Below, in pieces: positions 1 through 5,921 of a stretch of 5,921 nt of DNA; within the stretch, counting starts at the first letter, position 1; every line of letters begins with the position of its first letter. Source of the DNA: Escherichia coli (lineage in GTDB: Bacteria > Pseudomonadota > Gammaproteobacteria > Enterobacterales > Enterobacteriaceae). Both the position numbers and the translations under genes were made by a program. The stretch lies in assembly GCF_003334355.1 (NCBI RefSeq), contig NZ_QOWP01000068.1, one strand, 5' to 3'. The notes under the pieces are model-generated. The model ran no database searches. It was given only the letters and a program-made list of their open reading frames with translations, and was not told the origin of the DNA.

Positions 1-125
1 TGCAGTTGCCATGTTTTACGGCAGTGAGAGCAGAGATAGCGCTGATGTCCGGCAGTGCTTTTGCCGTTACGCACCACCCCGTCAGTAGCTGAACAGGAGG
101 GACAGCTGATAGAAACAGAAGCCAC
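1..125 (-). CDS. insA: IS1 InsA, N-terminal fragment (truncated by the window edge)
   Basis: Minus-strand GTG at 125-123, then codons translating [41 protein letters not shown]; the CxxC...CxxC zinc-finger-like pattern matches InsA as I recall it. Confidence 0.8.
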
Positions 126-157
126 TGGAGCACCTCAAAAACACCATCATACACTAA

Positions 158-180
158 ATCAGTAAGTTGGCAGCATCACC
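158..180. repeat. IS1 terminal inverted repeat (IRL), 23 bp
   Basis: atcagtaagttggcagcatcacc is the reverse complement of GGTGATGCTGCCAACTTACTGAT, and an imperfect inverted match to the repeat at 5845-5867. Confidence 0.85.
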
Positions 181-315
181 CGATGTGACTATGATCGTAT
201 CCGGTGAGTACAGCTTTGATCCAAAGGCTGGTTTTCTGTGATGATTGACCAGCCTCAGAGTATTGATGACACCACCGTTCATAACAGATCGGCATTACTA
301 TGCATAAGTACTGTC

Positions 316-1368
316 TCATATTCTCGCCAAAACACTTTTTAATGCCTTTGCGAATTCATCCAGACTTATATTGTCAATTTTTTGCCCAACGACGACTGAC
401 TCCGAAACATCGGCCATTGCGGGCCATCGCGTTTTGTAATCAGCATAAATTGCAACAACGGGAGTATTATAGGCACTTGCCATATGTAATATTGAGGTGT
501 CAGGAGTTATTGCGATATAAGCATCTTTTATGATTGCTGCTGAACGTTTAATCGAGGGTGATAAGGATAAACGGTAGACATTATTATAACAATCCACTAA
601 TACCCTGGCTTTATCTTCCCCTTTTGGTCCATGAACGATCACTATTGGTATATCTGTTTCACTTTGAATTTTTGCTATTAGATTTTCTGCAATCGATAAT
701 GAAAATGTACGTTCCTGCGAGCTACCTTCTAAATTAAGCGCAATGTAAGATCCTAACGATCGCATTTCCTCGCGCACCTCATCGAGTACATCCTCACTTA
801 GTGGCAATTCATATATTGGCCTGACTGCTGGAAAACCCGCCTCACGCATCATAAATGCCCATGTCATGGGTACAGGAGCCCGGAGATTCTGATCCATCCG
901 GGACGCGTTCTTGCACAAAGGGGAGTAGCACTTCATGGTTAAACCAACAACCTGAAAATTCGTTTTTGCTTTTAACTGACTGATAAATATCATCGTTTTC
1001 AGGTTCTTTTTACGCATCGCCTCTATACAAAGATCCGGCGTACCGTATTGCTGTGTTATGTTCTTTGCTAAATCTTTTATTTCTTTTAATGTTGCGTGAT
1101 CCTGCATAGTCATTGTGACTAATGTTAATTTAGTCTTTTCAAGTTTAAGTGCATTAAACACTTCTAAATTAATTGTCGACGTAACAATTAAAAGATGCTT
1201 AATTTTATGCAATTCAAGCGCCCGAATAACAGGAAAGATGGCCATAGCATCGCCAATCTGGTCGGGAATATGGATAACAACAAACTCTGTTTTTTCAATA
1301 TTAAAATTATAAGCTTTATAATCGTAGTAACTAAATGCAATACGTCTCAACAATGATGCTAAAAACAT
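316..1368 (-). CDS. yeeL: Glycosyltransferase family 9 (ADP-heptose:LPS heptosyltransferase-like) protein; YeeL-like
   Basis: Single uninterrupted minus-strand frame ending in TGA at 318-316. The N-terminal region (VVIHIPDQIGDAMAIFPVIRAL) resembles the GT9 'GD' motif region, and the C-terminal region (ITPDTSILHMASAYNTPVVAIYADYKTRWP) resembles the conserved GT9 DSGpmHlAaA...P-x-valfG block. Start is uncertain: the ORF track opens at a TTG (1431); the first in-frame ATG is at 1368-1366, preceded by GGGAGG/GAGG, which gives 350 aa. Position next to shiA matches the yeeL locus. Confidence 0.75.
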   Translation of the reverse strand: MFLASLLRRIAFSYYDYKAYNFNIEKTEFVVIHIPDQIGDAMAIFPVIRALELHKIKHLLIVTSTINLEVFNALKLEKTKLTLVTMTMQDHATLKEIKDLAKNITQQYGTPDLCIEAMRKKNLKTMIFISQLKAKTNFQVVGLTMKCYSPLCKNASRMDQNLRAPVPMTWAFMMREAGFPAVRPIYELPLSEDVLDEVREEMRSLGSYIALNLEGSSQERTFSLSIAENLIAKIQSETDIPIVIVHGPKGEDKARVLVDCYNNVYRLSLSPSIKRSAAIIKDAYIAITPDTSILHMASAYNTPVVAIYADYKTRWPAMADVSESVVVGQKIDNISLDEFAKALKSVLARI

Positions 1369-1682
1369 ACCTAACCTCGCCTCCCTACTGGTTATAATGC
1401 ATTGCAGTCTATCAGACTCATCATGGCGCAATTTTGTGCATATGCGGACTTTTATGTTTCATATCTCGAACCTGTGGGTCCTCTGCTTAATCCTTAAACA
1501 ACACCAGCAACTCCTGCGCTTTCATCTTCCAGCGAATTTTTCATGTTGCCGTTAATCGGCCATAAAATCATTTGCAGATGCGCTCTGTCGAGGTAGTCTC
1601 ATAAGGTTCGTTTATAGATCGACGGCAATGTGAGTTACCTTTTCCATACTAATTATAAAAAGACAGTACAAACAGGATCATT

Positions 1683-2999
1683 ATGGACTCCACGCTCATC
1701 TCCACTCGTCCCGATGAAGGGACGCTTTCGTTAAGTCGCGCCCGACGAGCTGCGTTAGGCAGTTTCGCTGGTGCCGTCGTCGACTGGTATGATTTTTTAC
1801 TCTATGGCATTACCGCCGCACTGGTGTTTAATCGCGAGTTTTTCCCGCAAGTAAGCCCGGCGATGGGAACGCTCGCCGCATTTGCCACCTTTGGCGTCGG
1901 ATTCCTTTTCCGTCCGCTCGGCGGTGTCATTTTCGGTCACTTTGGCGACCGACTGGGACGTAAGCGCATGTTAATGCTGACCGTCTGGATGATGGGCATC
2001 GCGACAGCCTTGATTGGTATTCTTCCTTCCTTCTCGACCAGTGGGTGGTGGGCACCTATTTTACTGGTGACGCTGCGTGCCATTCAGGGATTTGCCGTCG
2101 GCGGCGAATGGGGAGGCGCGGCGTTGCTTTCCGTTGAAAGTGCACCGAAAAATAAAAAAGCCTTTTACAGTAGCGGTGTACAAGTTGGCTACGGTGTAGG
2201 TTTACTGCTTTCAACCGGACTGGTTTCATTGATCAGTATGATGACGACTGACGAACAGTTTTTAAGCTGGGGCTGGCGCATTCCTTTCCTGTTTAGCATC
2301 GTACTGGTACTGGGAGCATTGTGGGTGCGCAATGGCATGGAGGAGTCCGCGGAATTTGAACAACAGCAACATTATCAAGCTGCCGCGAAAAAACGCATCC
2401 CGGTTATCGAAGCGCTGTTACGACATCCCGGTGCTTTCCTGAAGATTATTGCGCTACGACTGTGCGAATTGCTGACGATGTACATCGTTACTGCCTTCGC
2501 ACTTAATTATTCAACCCAGAATATGGGGTTACCGCGCGAACTTTTCCTCAATATTGGTTTGCTGGTAGGTGGATTAAGCTGCCTGACAATTCCCTGTTTT
2601 GCCTGGCTTGCCGATCGTTTTGGTCGCCGCAGGGTTTATATCACAGGCGCGTTAATCGGAACGTTGAGCGCATTTCCTTTCTTTATGGCGCTTGAAGCAC
2701 AATCTATTTTCTGGATAGTTTTCTTCTCCATAATGCTGGCAAACATTGCGCATGACATGGTGGTGTGTGTGCAACAACCGATGTTTACCGAAATGTTTGG
2801 TGCCAGTTATCGCTATAGTGGCGCTGGAGTCGGTTATCAGGTTGCCAGTGTGGTTGGCGGTGGATTTACACCTTTTATTGCCGCTGCACTCATCACTTAC
2901 TTTGCCGGGAACTGGCATAGCGTCGCCATTTATTTGCTGGCTGGATGCCTGATTTCCGCAATGACCGCTTTGTTGATGAAAGACAGTCAACGCGCTTGA
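1683..2999 (+). CDS. shiA: Shikimate/dehydroshikimate transporter ShiA (major facilitator superfamily)
   Basis: 438-aa ORF with ATG at 1683 preceded by AGGA. MFS motif-A-like sequences GHFGDRLGRKRM and LADRFGRRRV are present, and the protein is hydrophobic throughout. The sequence is recognised as E. coli ShiA from memory. Confidence 0.93.
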   Translation: MDSTLISTRPDEGTLSLSRARRAALGSFAGAVVDWYDFLLYGITAALVFNREFFPQVSPAMGTLAAFATFGVGFLFRPLGGVIFGHFGDRLGRKRMLMLTVWMMGIATALIGILPSFSTSGWWAPILLVTLRAIQGFAVGGEWGGAALLSVESAPKNKKAFYSSGVQVGYGVGLLLSTGLVSLISMMTTDEQFLSWGWRIPFLFSIVLVLGALWVRNGMEESAEFEQQQHYQAAAKKRIPVIEALLRHPGAFLKIIALRLCELLTMYIVTAFALNYSTQNMGLPRELFLNIGLLVGGLSCLTIPCFAWLADRFGRRRVYITGALIGTLSAFPFFMALEAQSIFWIVFFSIMLANIAHDMVVCVQQPMFTEMFGASYRYSGAGVGYQVASVVGGGFTPFIAAALITYFAGNWHSVAIYLLAGCLISAMTALLMKDSQRA

Positions 3000-3005
3000 T
3001 AGCCT

Positions 3006-3045
3006 GGCGAAGATCATCCGATCTTCGCCTTACACTTTTGTTTCA
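3006..3045 (+). terminator. Candidate intrinsic terminator downstream of shiA
   Basis: Perfect 9-bp stem GGCGAAGAT (3006-3014) / ATCTTCGCC (3021-3029) with 6-nt loop CATCCG, followed by the T-rich tract TTACACTTTTGTTT. Begins 7 nt after the shiA stop. Confidence 0.45.
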
Positions 3046-3100
3046 CATTTCTGTGACATACTATCGGATGTGCGGTAATTGTATGGAACAGGAGACACAC

Positions 3101-4555
3101 ATGAATAATAAGGGCTCCGGTCTGACCCCAGCTCAGGCACTGGATAAACTCGACGCGCTGTATGAGCAATCTGTAGTCGCATTACGCAACGCCATTGGCA
3201 ACTATATTACAAGTGGCGAATTACCTGATGAAAACGCCCGCAAACAAGGTCTTTTTGTCTATCCATCACTGACCGTAACCTGGGACGGTAGCACAACCAA
3301 TCCCCCCAAAACGCGCGCATTTGGTCGCTTTACCCACGCAGGCAGCTACACCACCACGATTACTCGCCCTACTCTCTTTCGTTCGTATCTTAATGAACAA
3401 CTTACGTTGCTGTATCAGGATTATGGTGCGCATATCTCTGTGCAACCCTCGCAGCATGAAATCCCCTATCCTTATGTCATCGATGGCTCTGAATTGACAC
3501 TTGATCGCTCAATGAGCGCTGGGTTAACTCGCTACTTCCCGACAACAGAACTGGCGCAAATTGGCGATGAAACTGCAGACGGCATTTATCATCCAACTGA
3601 ATTCTCCCCGCTATCGCATTTTGATGCGCGCCGCGTCGATTTTTCCCTCGCACGGTTGCGCCATTATACCGGTACGCCAGTTGAACATTTTCAGCCGTTC
3701 GTCTTGTTTACCAACTACACACGTTATGTGGATGAATTCGTTCGTTGGGGATGCAGCCAGATCCTCGATCCTGATAGTCCCTACATTGCCCTTTCTTGTG
3801 CTGGCGGGAACTGGATCACCGCCGAAACCGAAGCGCCAGAAGAAGCCATTTCCGACCTTGCATGGAAAAAACACCAGATGCCAGCATGGCATTTAATTAC
3901 CGCCGATGGTCAGGGTATTACTCTGGTGAATATTGGCGTGGGACCGTCCAATGCTAAAACCATCTGCGATCATCTGGCAGTGCTACGCCCGGATGTCTGG
4001 TTGATGATTGGTCACTGTGGCGGATTACGTGAAAGTCAGGCCATTGGCGATTATGTACTTGCACACGCTTATTTACGCGATGACCACGTTCTTGATGCGG
4101 TTCTGCCGCCCGATATTCCTATTCCGAGCATTGCTGAAGTGCAACGTGCGCTTTATGACGCCACCAAGCTGGTGAGTGGCAGGCCCGGTGAGGAAGTCAA
4201 ACAGCGGCTACGTACAGGTACTGTGGTAACCACAGATGACAGGAACTGGGAATTACGTTACTCAGCTTCTGCACTTCGTTTTAACTTAAGCCGGGCCGTA
4301 GCAATTGATATGGAAAGTGCAACCATTGCCGCGCAAGGATATCGTTTCCGCGTGCCATACGGGACACTACTGTGTGTTTCAGATAAACCGTTGCATGGCG
4401 AGATTAAACTTCCCGGCCAGGCTAACCGTTTTTATGAAGGCGCTATTTCCGAACATCTGCAAATTGGCATTCGGGCGATCGATTTGCTGCGCGCAGAAGG
4501 CGACCGACTGCATTCGCGTAAATTACGAACCTTTAATGAGCCGCCGTTCCGATAA
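3101..4555 (+). CDS. amn: AMP nucleosidase (EC 3.2.2.4)
   Basis: 484-aa frame from ATG 3101 (MNNKGSGLTPAQALDKLDALYEQ...), preceded by GGAGA at 3091-3095. The C-terminal half shows nucleoside phosphorylase/hydrolase-fold features (VNIGVGPSNA, AIDMESATIAAQG). The 536-aa ORF in the track starts inside the shiA 3' end and is not accepted. Confidence 0.95.
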   Translation: MNNKGSGLTPAQALDKLDALYEQSVVALRNAIGNYITSGELPDENARKQGLFVYPSLTVTWDGSTTNPPKTRAFGRFTHAGSYTTTITRPTLFRSYLNEQLTLLYQDYGAHISVQPSQHEIPYPYVIDGSELTLDRSMSAGLTRYFPTTELAQIGDETADGIYHPTEFSPLSHFDARRVDFSLARLRHYTGTPVEHFQPFVLFTNYTRYVDEFVRWGCSQILDPDSPYIALSCAGGNWITAETEAPEEAISDLAWKKHQMPAWHLITADGQGITLVNIGVGPSNAKTICDHLAVLRPDVWLMIGHCGGLRESQAIGDYVLAHAYLRDDHVLDAVLPPDIPIPSIAEVQRALYDATKLVSGRPGEEVKQRLRTGTVVTTDDRNWELRYSASALRFNLSRAVAIDMESATIAAQGYRFRVPYGTLLCVSDKPLHGEIKLPGQANRFYEGAISEHLQIGIRAIDLLRAEGDRLHSRKLRTFNEPPFR

Positions 4556-4822
4556 TAAGTTCTGAACCTTCTCATCAGAAATAGATGTGAAGGATTAAGT
4601 AAGACATCTGGCAAATAGCCTGCAATCAACGCGGGCTGTTTGCTTCCTTGGGCAGATGCGAGTTTCATTATCGTCTTAATGATTTCCGCATATTAAAAGC
4701 ATGTATGCTTTCAAAATATAATTATAAAAAATCCCGCCAACAACATTAGTTTTTATAAAACAAAATATAAGATTATGGCTTTAGAATATTTTTATTTCTA
4801 ATAGACGAGATTTTTCCGGTTA

Positions 4823-4831
4823 TGATATAAT
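4823..4831 (+). promoter_or_regulatory. Candidate extended -10 promoter element for yeeN (TGATATAAT)
   Basis: TGnTATAAT at 4823-4831, about 66 nt upstream of the yeeN GTG, within a 342-bp AT-rich intergenic region. No convincing -35 at 17-bp spacing, which is compatible with an extended -10 promoter. Prediction from sequence only. Confidence 0.35.
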
Positions 4832-4897
4832 ATGCTGATTTAACACATGTTAACGATTTACCAGTAATGTAAATAAATTTTCGAGGAGATCATTCCA

Positions 4898-5614
4898 GTG
4901 GGACGTAAATGGGCCAATATTGTTGCTAAAAAAACGGCTAAAGACGGTGCAACGTCTAAAATTTATGCAAAATTCGGTGTAGAAATCTATGCTGCTGCTA
5001 AACAAGGTGAACCCGATCCAGAATTAAACACATCTTTAAAATTCGTTATTGAACGTGCAAAGCAGGCACAAGTTCCAAAGCACGTTATTGATAAAGCAAT
5101 TGATAAAGCCAAAGGCGGCGGAGATGAAACGTTCGTGCAGGGCCGTTATGAAGGCTTTGGTCCTAATGGCTCAATGATTATCGCCGAGACATTGACTTCA
5201 AATGTTAACCGTACGATTGCTAACGTTCGCACAATTTTCAATAAAAAAGGCGGCAATATCGGAGCGGCAGGTTCTGTCAGCTATATGTTTGACAATACGG
5301 GTGTGATTGTATTTAAAGGATCAGACCCTGACCATATTTTTGAAATTTTACTTGAAGCTGAAGTTGATGTTCGTGATGTGACTGAAGAAGAAGGTAACAT
5401 TGTTATTTATACCGAACCTACTGACCTTCATAAAGGAATCGCGGCTCTAAAAGCAGCTGGAATCACTGAGTTCTCAACAACAGAATTAGAAATGATTGCG
5501 CAATCTGAAGTTGAGCTTTCCCCAGAAGATTTAGAAATCTTTGAAGGGCTTGTTGATGCCCTTGAAGATGACGACGATGTACAAAAAGTTTATCATAACG
5601 TCGCAAATCTCTAA
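4898..5614 (+). CDS. yeeN: YebC/PmpR-family protein (DUF28), YeeN
   Basis: 238-aa ORF with GTG start at 4898 preceded by GAGGAG (4882-4887). The N-terminus [27 protein letters not shown] parallels the YebC-family N-terminus (GHSKWANIKHKK...), and the tail is acidic (EDDDDVQKV). Recognised as E. coli YeeN from memory. Confidence 0.93.
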
Positions 5615-5623
5615 TTATATTTT

Positions 5624-5660
5624 AAAGAAATCTGTCTTTACGGCAGATTTCTTTAATCTC
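5624..5660 (+). terminator. Candidate intrinsic terminator downstream of yeeN (AT-rich hairpin, possibly bidirectional)
   Basis: Inverted repeat AAAGAAATCTG (5624-5634) / CAGATTTCTTT (5644-5654), 11 bp perfect with a short loop, followed by TTTAATCTC. The stem is AT-rich so strength is uncertain. Begins 10 nt after the yeeN stop. Confidence 0.45.
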
Positions 5661-5844
5661 ATATAACCCTTATAAAAAATATAATGTTCAACTCGTCATA
5701 TTGATTATAAAAAATCCCCGTTCCCAGAGAAATAATATTTATTAAAATTCCAGTTCTTCTTTTTCTGATTACAGAAGGCAAAGTGGCAATTACGCATAGT
5801 TTCCCGATAAAGACGCGATAGCGACATCCCGCATAAGGCATTTT

Positions 5845-5867
5845 GGTAATGACTCCAACTTATTGAT
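5845..5867. repeat. IS1 terminal inverted repeat (IRR), 23 bp
   Basis: ggtaatgactccaacttattgat; differs from the repeat at 158-180 at a few positions, as expected for IS1 IRL versus IRR. Confidence 0.85.
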
Positions 5868-5921
5868 AGTGTTTTATGTTCAGATAATGCCCGATGACTT
5901 TGTCATGCAGCTCCACCGATT
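5860..5921 (-). CDS. insB: IS1 InsB (transposase C-terminal part), 3' fragment truncated by the window edge
   Basis: Minus-strand reading gives ...SVELHDKVIGHYLNIKHYQ followed by stop TAA (complement of 5862-5860), matching the InsB/InsAB' C-terminus from memory. Confidence 0.75.
   Translation of the reverse strand, partial: SVELHDKVIGHYLNIKHYQ

Follow-up and report, generated by a model that had tools for sequence, protein, structure and literature searches.

Two directly oriented IS1 copies around the native yeeL-shiA-amn-yeeN genes of Escherichia coli: probable separate insertions

When a group of chromosomal genes lies between two IS1 copies of the same orientation, does it form a mobile unit of the Tn9 type, or have two insertion sequences come to lie close to each other through separate events? 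This question is raised by the window, by which we mean the whole stretch of 5,921 nucleotides of E. coli DNA analysed here. Both of its edges fall within IS1, and the genes yeeL, shiA, amn and yeeN lie in between. On the basis of sequence comparisons we consider it probable that two separate IS1 insertions took place in the spacers bordering the native yeeL-shiA-amn-yeeN genes of an IS1-rich, commensal-type E. coli close to strains PSS-12 and CP8-3_Sichuan (hereafter CP8-3).

IS1 termini and the DNA between them

The features of the window and of its surroundings are compiled in Table 1. As read from the sequence, the reverse complement of positions 158-180 (GGTGATGCTGCCAACTTACTGAT) is the IRL of IS1, and positions 5845-5867 (GGTAATGACTCCAACTTATTGAT) are its IRR. 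The two agree at 18 of 23 positions, i.e., imperfect terminal inverted repeats of about 23 bp are present. The left-edge terminus is assigned to IRL because the minus strand from 125 to 1 encodes the N-terminal 41 residues of InsA (residues 1-41), and the Pfam domain Zn_ribbon_InsA was detected on the same product. Positions 1-180 and 5845-5921 show no mismatch to the last 180 and the first 77 nt, respectively (in window orientation), of the IS1A copy of PSS-12, a complete element of 768 bp (L001 11665-12432). Since both termini are in minus orientation, the two copies are direct repeats, and the span they enclose amounts to 5,664 bp (5844-181+1). The sequence-only reading had placed IS1 termini of the same orientation at both edges, with the IRL end at 180 and the IRR start at 5845, and had counted 5,664 bp with four intact genes between them. 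The termini were confirmed by their 100% identity to the PSS-12 element, and the enclosed span by coordinates, open reading frames and the RefSeq annotation of PSS-12 and CP8-3. Both IS1 copies are presumably full length, with 180 and 77 nt of them visible in the window.

Table 1. Features of the window and IS1 insertions at nearby sites in other E. coli (window coordinates)
Feature	Position	Strand	Basis or remark
IS1 copy, IRL-proximal 180 nt (IS1A type)	1..180	-	runs on leftwards past the window
insA, first 125 nt	125..1	-	within left IS1 fragment
Native DNA adjoining left IS1, first 9 nt CGATGTGAC	181..189	.	PSS-12 comparison
Native yeeJ-yeeL intergenic spacer, distal part	181..315	.	collinear with PSS-12 (L001 6001 onward), K-12 synteny
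yeeL homologue, intact glycosyltransferase family 9 (GT9), 350 aa	316..1368	-	identical PSS-12 DNA = WP_000477906.1
shiA, shikimate transporter, 438 aa	1683..2999	+	ORF list; RefSeq annotation of identical DNA in PSS-12 and CP8-3
amn, AMP nucleosidase, 484 aa	3101..4555	+	RefSeq annotation
yeeN, YebC/PmpR-family regulator, 238 aa, GTG start	4898..5614	+	ORF list; RefSeq annotation
Right IS1 target-site duplication, inner copy, 8 bp GGCATTTT	5837..5844	.	PSS-12 vs K-12 comparison
IS1 copy, IRR-proximal 77 nt	5845..5921	-	runs on rightwards past the window
insB 3' end	from about 5860	-	within right IS1 fragment
IS1 simple insertion, EC20-72C-1	83 bp left of 181		own 8-9 bp duplication
IS1 simple insertion, DXMF6-3R	577-585		own 8-9 bp duplication
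IS1 simple insertion, DXMF6-3R	1351-1359		own 8-9 bp duplication
IS1 simple insertion, CP8-3	5745-5753		own 8-9 bp duplication
IS1 simple insertion, YSP8-1	about 151 bp right of the right site		own 8-9 bp duplication

The DNA between the termini resides at its ordinary place in the chromosome. K-12 MG1655 has the same gene order without IS1 at the locus, and the comparison of synteny with this strain bore out what the sequence-only reading had stated on K-12. The yeeL gene of K-12 is a pseudogene with an internal stop, whereas the copy in the window is intact. At least 80% of the window sequence is found in one place in 5,232 of 5,426 complete E. coli genomes, and all loci inspected, be it in K-12, PSS-12, CP8-3 or other E. 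coli, represent the native yeeL-shiA-amn-yeeN position. Neither RNA families (Rfam) nor tRNA genes were found within the window, with asnW located beyond the right IS1, and repeats within the window comprise short matches at chance level only.

Two insertion sites with different distributions

The target duplication and the outer flank of the right copy were read in PSS-12 as a proxy for the source genome. This strain carries an IS1 at the identical nucleotide (5844/5845), and the 8-bp sequence GGCATTTT is present on both of its sides. The junctions in PSS-12 read ...AAGGCATTTT/IS1/GGCATTTTTCTC..., as compared with the single uninterrupted ...AAGGCATTTTTCTC... of K-12. The PSS-12 copy at this site measures 768 bp, is annotated with a frameshifted transposase and is followed by native asnW-yeeO. 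Over the inner 5,664 bp PSS-12 differs from the window by one SNP, located in amn at 3381 (G in the window, A in PSS-12). CP8-3 likewise differs by one SNP up to 5753, where its own IS1 starts. PSS-12 lacks the left IS1, and its yeeJ pseudogene ends 126 bp left of window position 181. The presence of a right IS1 with its own 8-bp duplication in a genome devoid of the left one argues that the two copies arrived separately. Thus, by comparison with PSS-12, the right IS1 appears to be a simple insertion, and the block seems not to have been inserted as a unit; rather, two independent IS1 insertion events are indicated.

At the left site the native sequence of PSS-12 runs ...GAATCGCGTT/CGATGTGAC... 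without an IS1. The left copy, too, is probably a simple insertion, in which case CGATGTGAC would be the inner copy of its target duplication, and the outer-left junction is predicted to read ...GAATCGCGTTCGATGTGAC/GGTAATGACTCC..., that is, yeeJ-side DNA plus the 9-bp repeat of CGATGTGAC. In the comparison with 5,426 complete E. coli genomes the insertion site 180/181 was found only in the window. No contiguous match to the left junction exists in these genomes, and the seven matches that cover at least 80% of it are all two-piece joins to IS1 at other sites. The 32-mer spanning the junction had no match in the contigs of GTDB representative genomes and none in JGI metagenome contigs. We propose that one IS1 landed in the yeeJ-yeeL spacer (180/181) and the other in the yeeN-asnW spacer (5844/5845). 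The right copy, which is common to PSS-12 and looks like a simple insertion with an 8-bp duplication, would have come first, and the left copy would represent a later, lineage-private event.

It is conceivable, though unlikely, that the left junction is instead the end-point of an IS1-mediated rearrangement (adjacent deletion, inversion or recombination with another IS1) and that the DNA beyond it is not yeeJ. Two genomes provide precedents at this locus. Res13-Lact-EB12-05 has an IS1 of the window's orientation 248 bp further left, which borders on an RHS element instead of yeeJ and lacks a target duplication. In IH5 the yeeL gene contains an internally deleted IS1, through which the locus is connected to the fim/gntP region. 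Compatible with such an event, the left site is 10-16 bp away from the edge of a variable yeeJ region, where homology stops in about 2,300 genomes. However, six of the eight IS1 copies examined at the locus are simple insertions with target duplications, and in the nearest relatives yeeJ, or what is left of it, still adjoins the spacer. If the left junction were rearranged, two direct IS1 copies would still surround the block, but the left copy would point to a structurally altered chromosome.

Separate insertion events are a recurrent theme in this neighbourhood. IS1 elements inserted independently at five other nearby sites in other E. coli, each with its own 8-9 bp duplication (Table 1). 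An insertion interrupts the yeeN-asnW spacer in about 250 of 5,415 genomes; for the yeeJ-yeeL spacer the figure is about 50 of 5,044. In 203 genomes one of the outer flanks has an IS1 of the window's orientation no more than about 1 kb away.

IS1 abundance and the edges of the window

The closest matches to the window, at 0-1 SNP, come from E. coli isolated from human and pig faeces, whose genomes show about 21 IS1 matches each; other near relatives reach at least 40 at the top. If 21 copies are distributed over 4.7 Mb, at least one adjacent IS1 pair within 5.7 kb is expected with a probability of about 0.41, or 0.23 if direct orientation only is considered; with 40 copies the probability rises to about 0.85. 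Given 20-40 IS1 copies per genome, pairs this close are expected by chance, and two closely spaced IS1 around native genes are an ordinary arrangement in an IS1-rich strain. The sequence-only reading had suggested an IS1-rich background such as Shigella. Its first part agrees with the roughly 20-40 copies in the relatives, whereas the assignment to Shigella is unnecessary as the closest relatives are commensal and livestock E. coli; the collections searched contained no Shigella genomes, and the ranking of relatives applies to E. coli.

The position of the window edges inside IS1 is most likely explained by short-read assembly, which breaks at collapsed IS1 repeats. On this circumstantial ground the window is probably a complete short-read contig, and the arrangement would account for the assembly break at this locus. 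Draft assemblies often have contig ends or scaffold gaps 175-185 nt into IS1, and in two unrelated contigs the end falls exactly on IS1 nucleotide 180. Truncated InsA products of 40, 41 and 42 aa occur in 885, 2,433 and 1,273 blocks, respectively. A specific break hot spot at IS1 nucleotide 180 was considered and rejected because the 40- and 42-aa controls are also common, the impression being in part an effect of query selection.

A contig of this kind raises the question of whether a single IS1 copy supplies both ends of the window, either in a circle consisting of IS1 plus the 5,664 bp or in a tandem array (IS1-block-IS1-block) linearised by the assembler. Such structures would have the same two junctions as a block between two flanking copies. 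Moreover, both IS1 ends match one IS1A perfectly, and both can be placed on the single IS1 of PSS-12. We nevertheless regard this explanation as very unlikely: a circle has no replication origin and would not persist at assembly-level coverage, the novel junction between IRL and CGATGTGAC still requires IS1 transposition at 180/181, and contigs of this type derive by far most often from a chromosomal segment that lies between two IS1 copies.

Mobility of the block and comparison with known systems

If both copies are 768 bp long, the unit would measure 7.2 kb, and its outer ends, IRR on the left and IRL on the right, would form a valid IS1 end pair. The sequence-only reading had called the arrangement a Tn9-like composite. 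The architecture is indeed that of such an element, with a pair of IS1 in direct orientation bracketing a DNA segment, but the transposon part of the claim was not supported. The cargo is native and syntenic, the right IS1 of PSS-12 has its own duplication while the left one is absent, and a plasmid or phage copy was not found. Judged by PSS-12 as a proxy one SNP away, no single target duplication frames the outer ends of the unit, and the block was encountered neither at a second location or replicon nor as cargo foreign to its site. Whole-block matches among plasmid records are chromosome-like entries of 0.39-4.9 Mb with 97-99% identity, and none is a genuine plasmid. The match to NZ_CP019906.1, a 29 kb plasmid record, is confined to 493 bp of yeeL. 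NZ_CP126949.1 (145-kb IncFIB) was discarded as a candidate: it starts with an indel-ridden amn'-yeeN fragment, runs past the IS1 site of the window and looks like a misassembly with no relation to IS1. The phage collection contained no copy of the block, its sole match being a Salmonella chromosomal record with 88% identity.

It seems highly improbable to us that the source strain harbours an active 7.2-kb IS1-yeeL-shiA-amn-yeeN-IS1 unit, be it amplifiable or excisable (tandem array or circle) or mobile to plasmids as a composite transposon. If it were so, a shikimate transporter, an AMP nucleosidase, a YebC-family regulator and an intact GT9 glycosyltransferase could be moved to plasmids. Least probable of all is that a functional composite transposon of the Tn9 type moves, or once moved, as this unit, despite the direct IS1 copies with their valid outer end pair and an IS1 that is evidently active in the lineage (genomes 0-1 SNP apart differ in IS1 positions), because the block sits at its native, syntenic position and on no genuine plasmid or phage, and the target duplication in PSS-12 straddles the right IS1 alone, with the left copy absent. 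Transposition of IS1-flanked units reportedly drops steeply with length, and a unit of 7.2 kb is thus expected to be far less active than the 2.6-kb Tn9.

With two separate insertions as the preferred explanation, the resemblance to a composite transposon would be architectural, and the block would not have moved. Direct IS1 copies are substrates for recombination, and the corresponding statement of the sequence-only reading agrees with this established knowledge. Realistic consequences would be that the block is deleted or tandemly amplified through RecA, or that IS1 promotes deletions or inversions in the adjacent DNA. In this lineage the direct repeats make it possible for yeeL-shiA-amn-yeeN to be lost or amplified, as for argF of K-12, but there is no sign that either has occurred: a synthetic junction combining the left flank, one IS1 and the right flank, as expected after IS1 x IS1 deletion, was covered to at most 84% in any of the 5,426 complete E. 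coli genomes. A literature search on this locus yielded nothing specific. The arrangement matters little; it is a strain-level marker of recent IS1 activity, as IS1 positions differ between genomes with 0-1 SNP over 5.7 kb.

The single IS1 copies of PSS-12, CP8-3, YSP8-1 and EC20-72C-1 resemble those of the window in element, orientation, spacers and 8-9 bp duplications. Unlike the window, each of these strains has one IS1 at the locus and no bracketing pair.

Tn9 (IS1-cat-IS1) shares with the window the direct orientation of IS1 and the outer IRR...IRL pair. By contrast, it carries a foreign resistance gene on about 2.6 kb, whereas the cargo of the window is native and the unit would span 7.2 kb. 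Plasmids and phage P1 harbour Tn9, whose insertion as a unit leaves an outer 9-bp duplication, whereas the window block was found nowhere else and the duplication at the right IS1 in PSS-12 flanks that copy alone, the left one being absent.

The closest known analogue is IS1B-argF-IS1C of K-12, in which two same-strand IS1 surround ordinary chromosomal genes. In MG1655 the minus strand carries both IS1B (279163-279930) and IS1C (290634-291401), with 10,703 bp, argF among them, in between. This block reportedly tends to be amplified, deleted or picked up through IS1. In the window, too, resident chromosomal genes are surrounded by direct IS1 repeats; its block is shorter (5.7 kb), and neither amplification nor movement of it nor, among the complete E. 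coli genomes, a deletion product was observed. The two blocks also differ in their setting: that of argF is part of a cryptic prophage region and is considered acquired DNA, whereas yeeL-shiA-amn-yeeN is core-like DNA at its native, syntenic position.

IS1 termini and content of the window

The window both begins and finishes within IS1, in two separate element fragments, of which 180 nt are visible at the left and 77 nt at the right. Both fragments match the complete annotated 768-bp IS1A of strain PSS-12 with 0 mismatches and in identical orientation. Together with the terminal repeats, this match bears out the sequence-only reading that the edges are directly oriented IS1 termini, and its count of four intact genes in the 5,664 bp between them agrees with the gene coordinates. 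Neither a tRNA nor an Rfam family was found when both were sought in the window. An exact 15-nt direct repeat, ATTATAAAAAATCCC, located in AT-rich regions up- and downstream of yeeN (4721-4735 and 5704-5718), could be due to chance in DNA of this composition.

Features of the window, and IS1 insertions of other genomes at the same locus (window positions)
Feature	Position	Strand	Remarks
First 41 residues of InsA	125..1	minus	translation; Pfam Zn_ribbon_InsA on product
IS1 left terminal repeat, GGTGATGCTGCCAACTTACTGAT	158-180		read as reverse complement
yeeL homologue, family-9 glycosyltransferase	316-1368	minus	intact
shiA	1683-2999		intact
amn	3101-4555		intact
yeeN	4898-5614		intact
IS1 right terminal repeat, GGTAATGACTCCAACTTATTGAT	5845-5867		sequence reading
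EC20-72C-1 IS1	83 bp left of 181		8-bp duplication; same orientation as window copies
DXMF6-3R IS1	577-585, inside yeeL		9-bp duplication; same orientation
DXMF6-3R second IS1	1351-1359, inside yeeL		9-bp duplication; opposite orientation
CP8-3 IS1	5745-5753		9-bp duplication; same orientation
YSP8-1 IS1	~151 bp to the right of the right IS1 site		9-bp duplication; same orientation

In draft assemblies, contigs or scaffold pieces very commonly break off 175-185 nt into IS1, and for two unrelated contigs the end is precisely IS1 nt 180. Blocks listing a truncated InsA number 885 for the 40-aa product, 2,433 for the 41-aa product and 1,273 for the 42-aa product. The 77-nt overlap at the right corresponds to a common assembler k-mer size and may be linked to an assembly break. 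Given the frequent stops inside IS1 and this overlap, the window is probably a complete short-read contig between collapsed IS1 repeats; if so, extending it by 1 kb from the assembly alone may be impossible.

Native locus and nearest relatives

The gene order of K-12 MG1655, yeeJ-yeeL (pseudogene)-shiA-amn-yeeN-asnW-yeeO, is the same as that of the window and is free of IS1, in agreement with the sequence-only reading. Thus, the bracketed segment is resident chromosome and not imported cargo. Among 5,426 complete E. coli genomes, 5,232 have 80% or more of the window in a single place. The closest are those of PSS-12, from human faeces in Ecuador, and CP8-3_Sichuan, from a pig. Over the inner 5,664 bp, a single SNP (position 3381) separates PSS-12 from the window; CP8-3 likewise shows 1 SNP (position 968), counted up to 5753 where its own IS1 starts. 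The IS1-rich background proposed earlier is confirmed by about 21 IS1 matches per genome in the nearest relatives and up to at least 40 in other near relatives. Shigella is not needed as the host because the nearest relatives are E. coli, although this part of the proposal is not formally refuted, the searched collections being devoid of Shigella.

The yeeL-like glycosyltransferase (350 aa) is intact in the window, PSS-12 and CP8-3, and an internal stop renders it a pseudogene in K-12 MG1655 and YSP8-1. Its neighbor yeeJ is already decayed in the nearest relatives: the PSS-12 gene (locus L001, 1-5874) has an internal stop, and that of CP8-3 (locus L002, 1243-5874) is 5' truncated and adjoins an IS629 remnant and a group II intron. 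For about 2,300 of 5,044 genomes, the match to the yeeJ-yeeL spacer starts only at query positions 111-117, i.e., 10-16 bp left of window position 181 (L001 5985-5991) and near the left IS1 site. This point appears to be the boundary of a variable yeeJ region that is present, absent or divergent.

Origin of the two IS1 copies

PSS-12 carries an IS1 at exactly the right site of the window and, alone among the complete genomes, matches the right junction contiguously. The site reads ...AAGGCATTTT / IS1 / GGCATTTTTCTC... in PSS-12 and, uninterrupted, ...AAGGCATTTTTCTC... in K-12. The element thus bears its own 8-bp duplication, GGCATTTT, with native asnW-yeeO beyond, and comparison of this duplication with the K-12 sequence identifies the right IS1 as a simple insertion. 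Target duplications of 8 bp fall inside the range reported for IS1. In the source genome, such an insertion would give the outer junction ...GGCAGCATCACC / GGCATTTTTCTCTTTATC..., followed by asnW-yeeO.

No IS1 is present at 180/181 in PSS-12 or CP8-3, where the native left site, located 126 bp downstream of pseudogene yeeJ, reads ...GAATCGCGTT / CGATGTGAC.... The left junction was found as a contiguous match in no genome of the set of 5,426 complete E. coli genomes: all seven high-coverage matches arise by joining to an IS1 located elsewhere. Searches of the representative-genome and metagenome collections did not find the junction either. Judged from these comparisons, the left IS1 is an event private to this lineage. 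That a genome only 1 SNP away has the right IS1 by itself, flanked by a duplication of its own, argues that the copies arrived separately and that the segment was not inserted as a unit. We therefore consider two independent IS1 insertions the likely origin of the arrangement.

If the left IS1 is a simple insertion, the outer junction in the source would be ...GAATCGCGTTCGATGTGAC / GGTAATGACTCC.... Alternatively, it might be the end-point of a rearrangement, for which the locus offers precedents: in Res13-Lact-EB12-05 (L005 7333-8100) an IS1 that lacks a target duplication connects the yeeL side with an RHS element, and in IH5 (L008 8391-8581) an IS1 with an internal deletion, of which 75 + 116 nt remain inside yeeL, is joined to the fim/gntP/uxu region. 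The two junctions would equally result from a circle or tandem array in which each repeat holds a single IS1, a conceivable, lesser alternative.

Separate insertions are in keeping with the history of the locus, which gains IS1 repeatedly. About 250 of 5,415 genomes have an insertion in the yeeN-asnW spacer and about 50 of 5,044 have one in the yeeJ-yeeL spacer, and 203 genomes carry a window-oriented IS1 within about 1 kb of one outer flank. All four simple spacer insertions, at loci L001, L002, L004 and L006, are oriented like the window copies, a number too small to call a bias. The two IS1 copies of DXMF6-3R (L007 4406-5173 and 5957-6724) form an inverted pair around about 780 bp of yeeL and are another accidental composite-like pair at this locus. 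With 20-40 IS1 copies per genome in relatives, two copies should fairly often lie within 5.7 kb of each other: the computed chance is about 0.41 with 21 copies and rises to about 0.85 with 40.

Mobility of the segment and known IS1-flanked units

The pair formed by such independent insertions now offers homologous recombination a passive substrate through which the segment could be deleted or amplified. The anticipated product of IS1 x IS1 deletion did not materialize in complete E. coli genomes, where coverage of a synthetic junction (left flank, single IS1, right flank) never exceeded 84%. The plasmid collection contained no genuine plasmid with the segment: whole-segment matches (97-99% identity) were chromosome-sized or chromosome-like records of 0.39-4.9 Mb, i.e., whole or partial chromosomes that are entered in PLSDB. 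NZ_CP126949.1, the record of a 145-kb IncFIB APEC plasmid, was rejected as an IS1-borne copy because its fragment runs past the IS1 site and is unrelated to IS1. At positions 1-1780 the record holds chromosomal DNA, an amn'-yeeN-spacer fragment of 96% identity with numerous single-base indels, which extends into the asnW-side spacer and probably represents a long-read misassembly or chimera. The phage collection yielded a Salmonella chromosomal match only and no phage copy.

Of the Tn9-like composite that had been proposed, the direct IS1 pair stands, and likeness to Tn9 ends there: judged by proxy, neither unit-wide duplication, nor occurrence at a second site, nor foreign cargo was found. 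The IS1-bracketed segment is a composite transposon in name only, and probably a very inefficient one. The observation is real but ordinary and of an already known kind. Its closest real analogue is the argF block of K-12, where IS1B and IS1C lie 10,703 bp apart, both on the minus strand, and which is known from the classical literature for IS1-mediated amplification and deletion.
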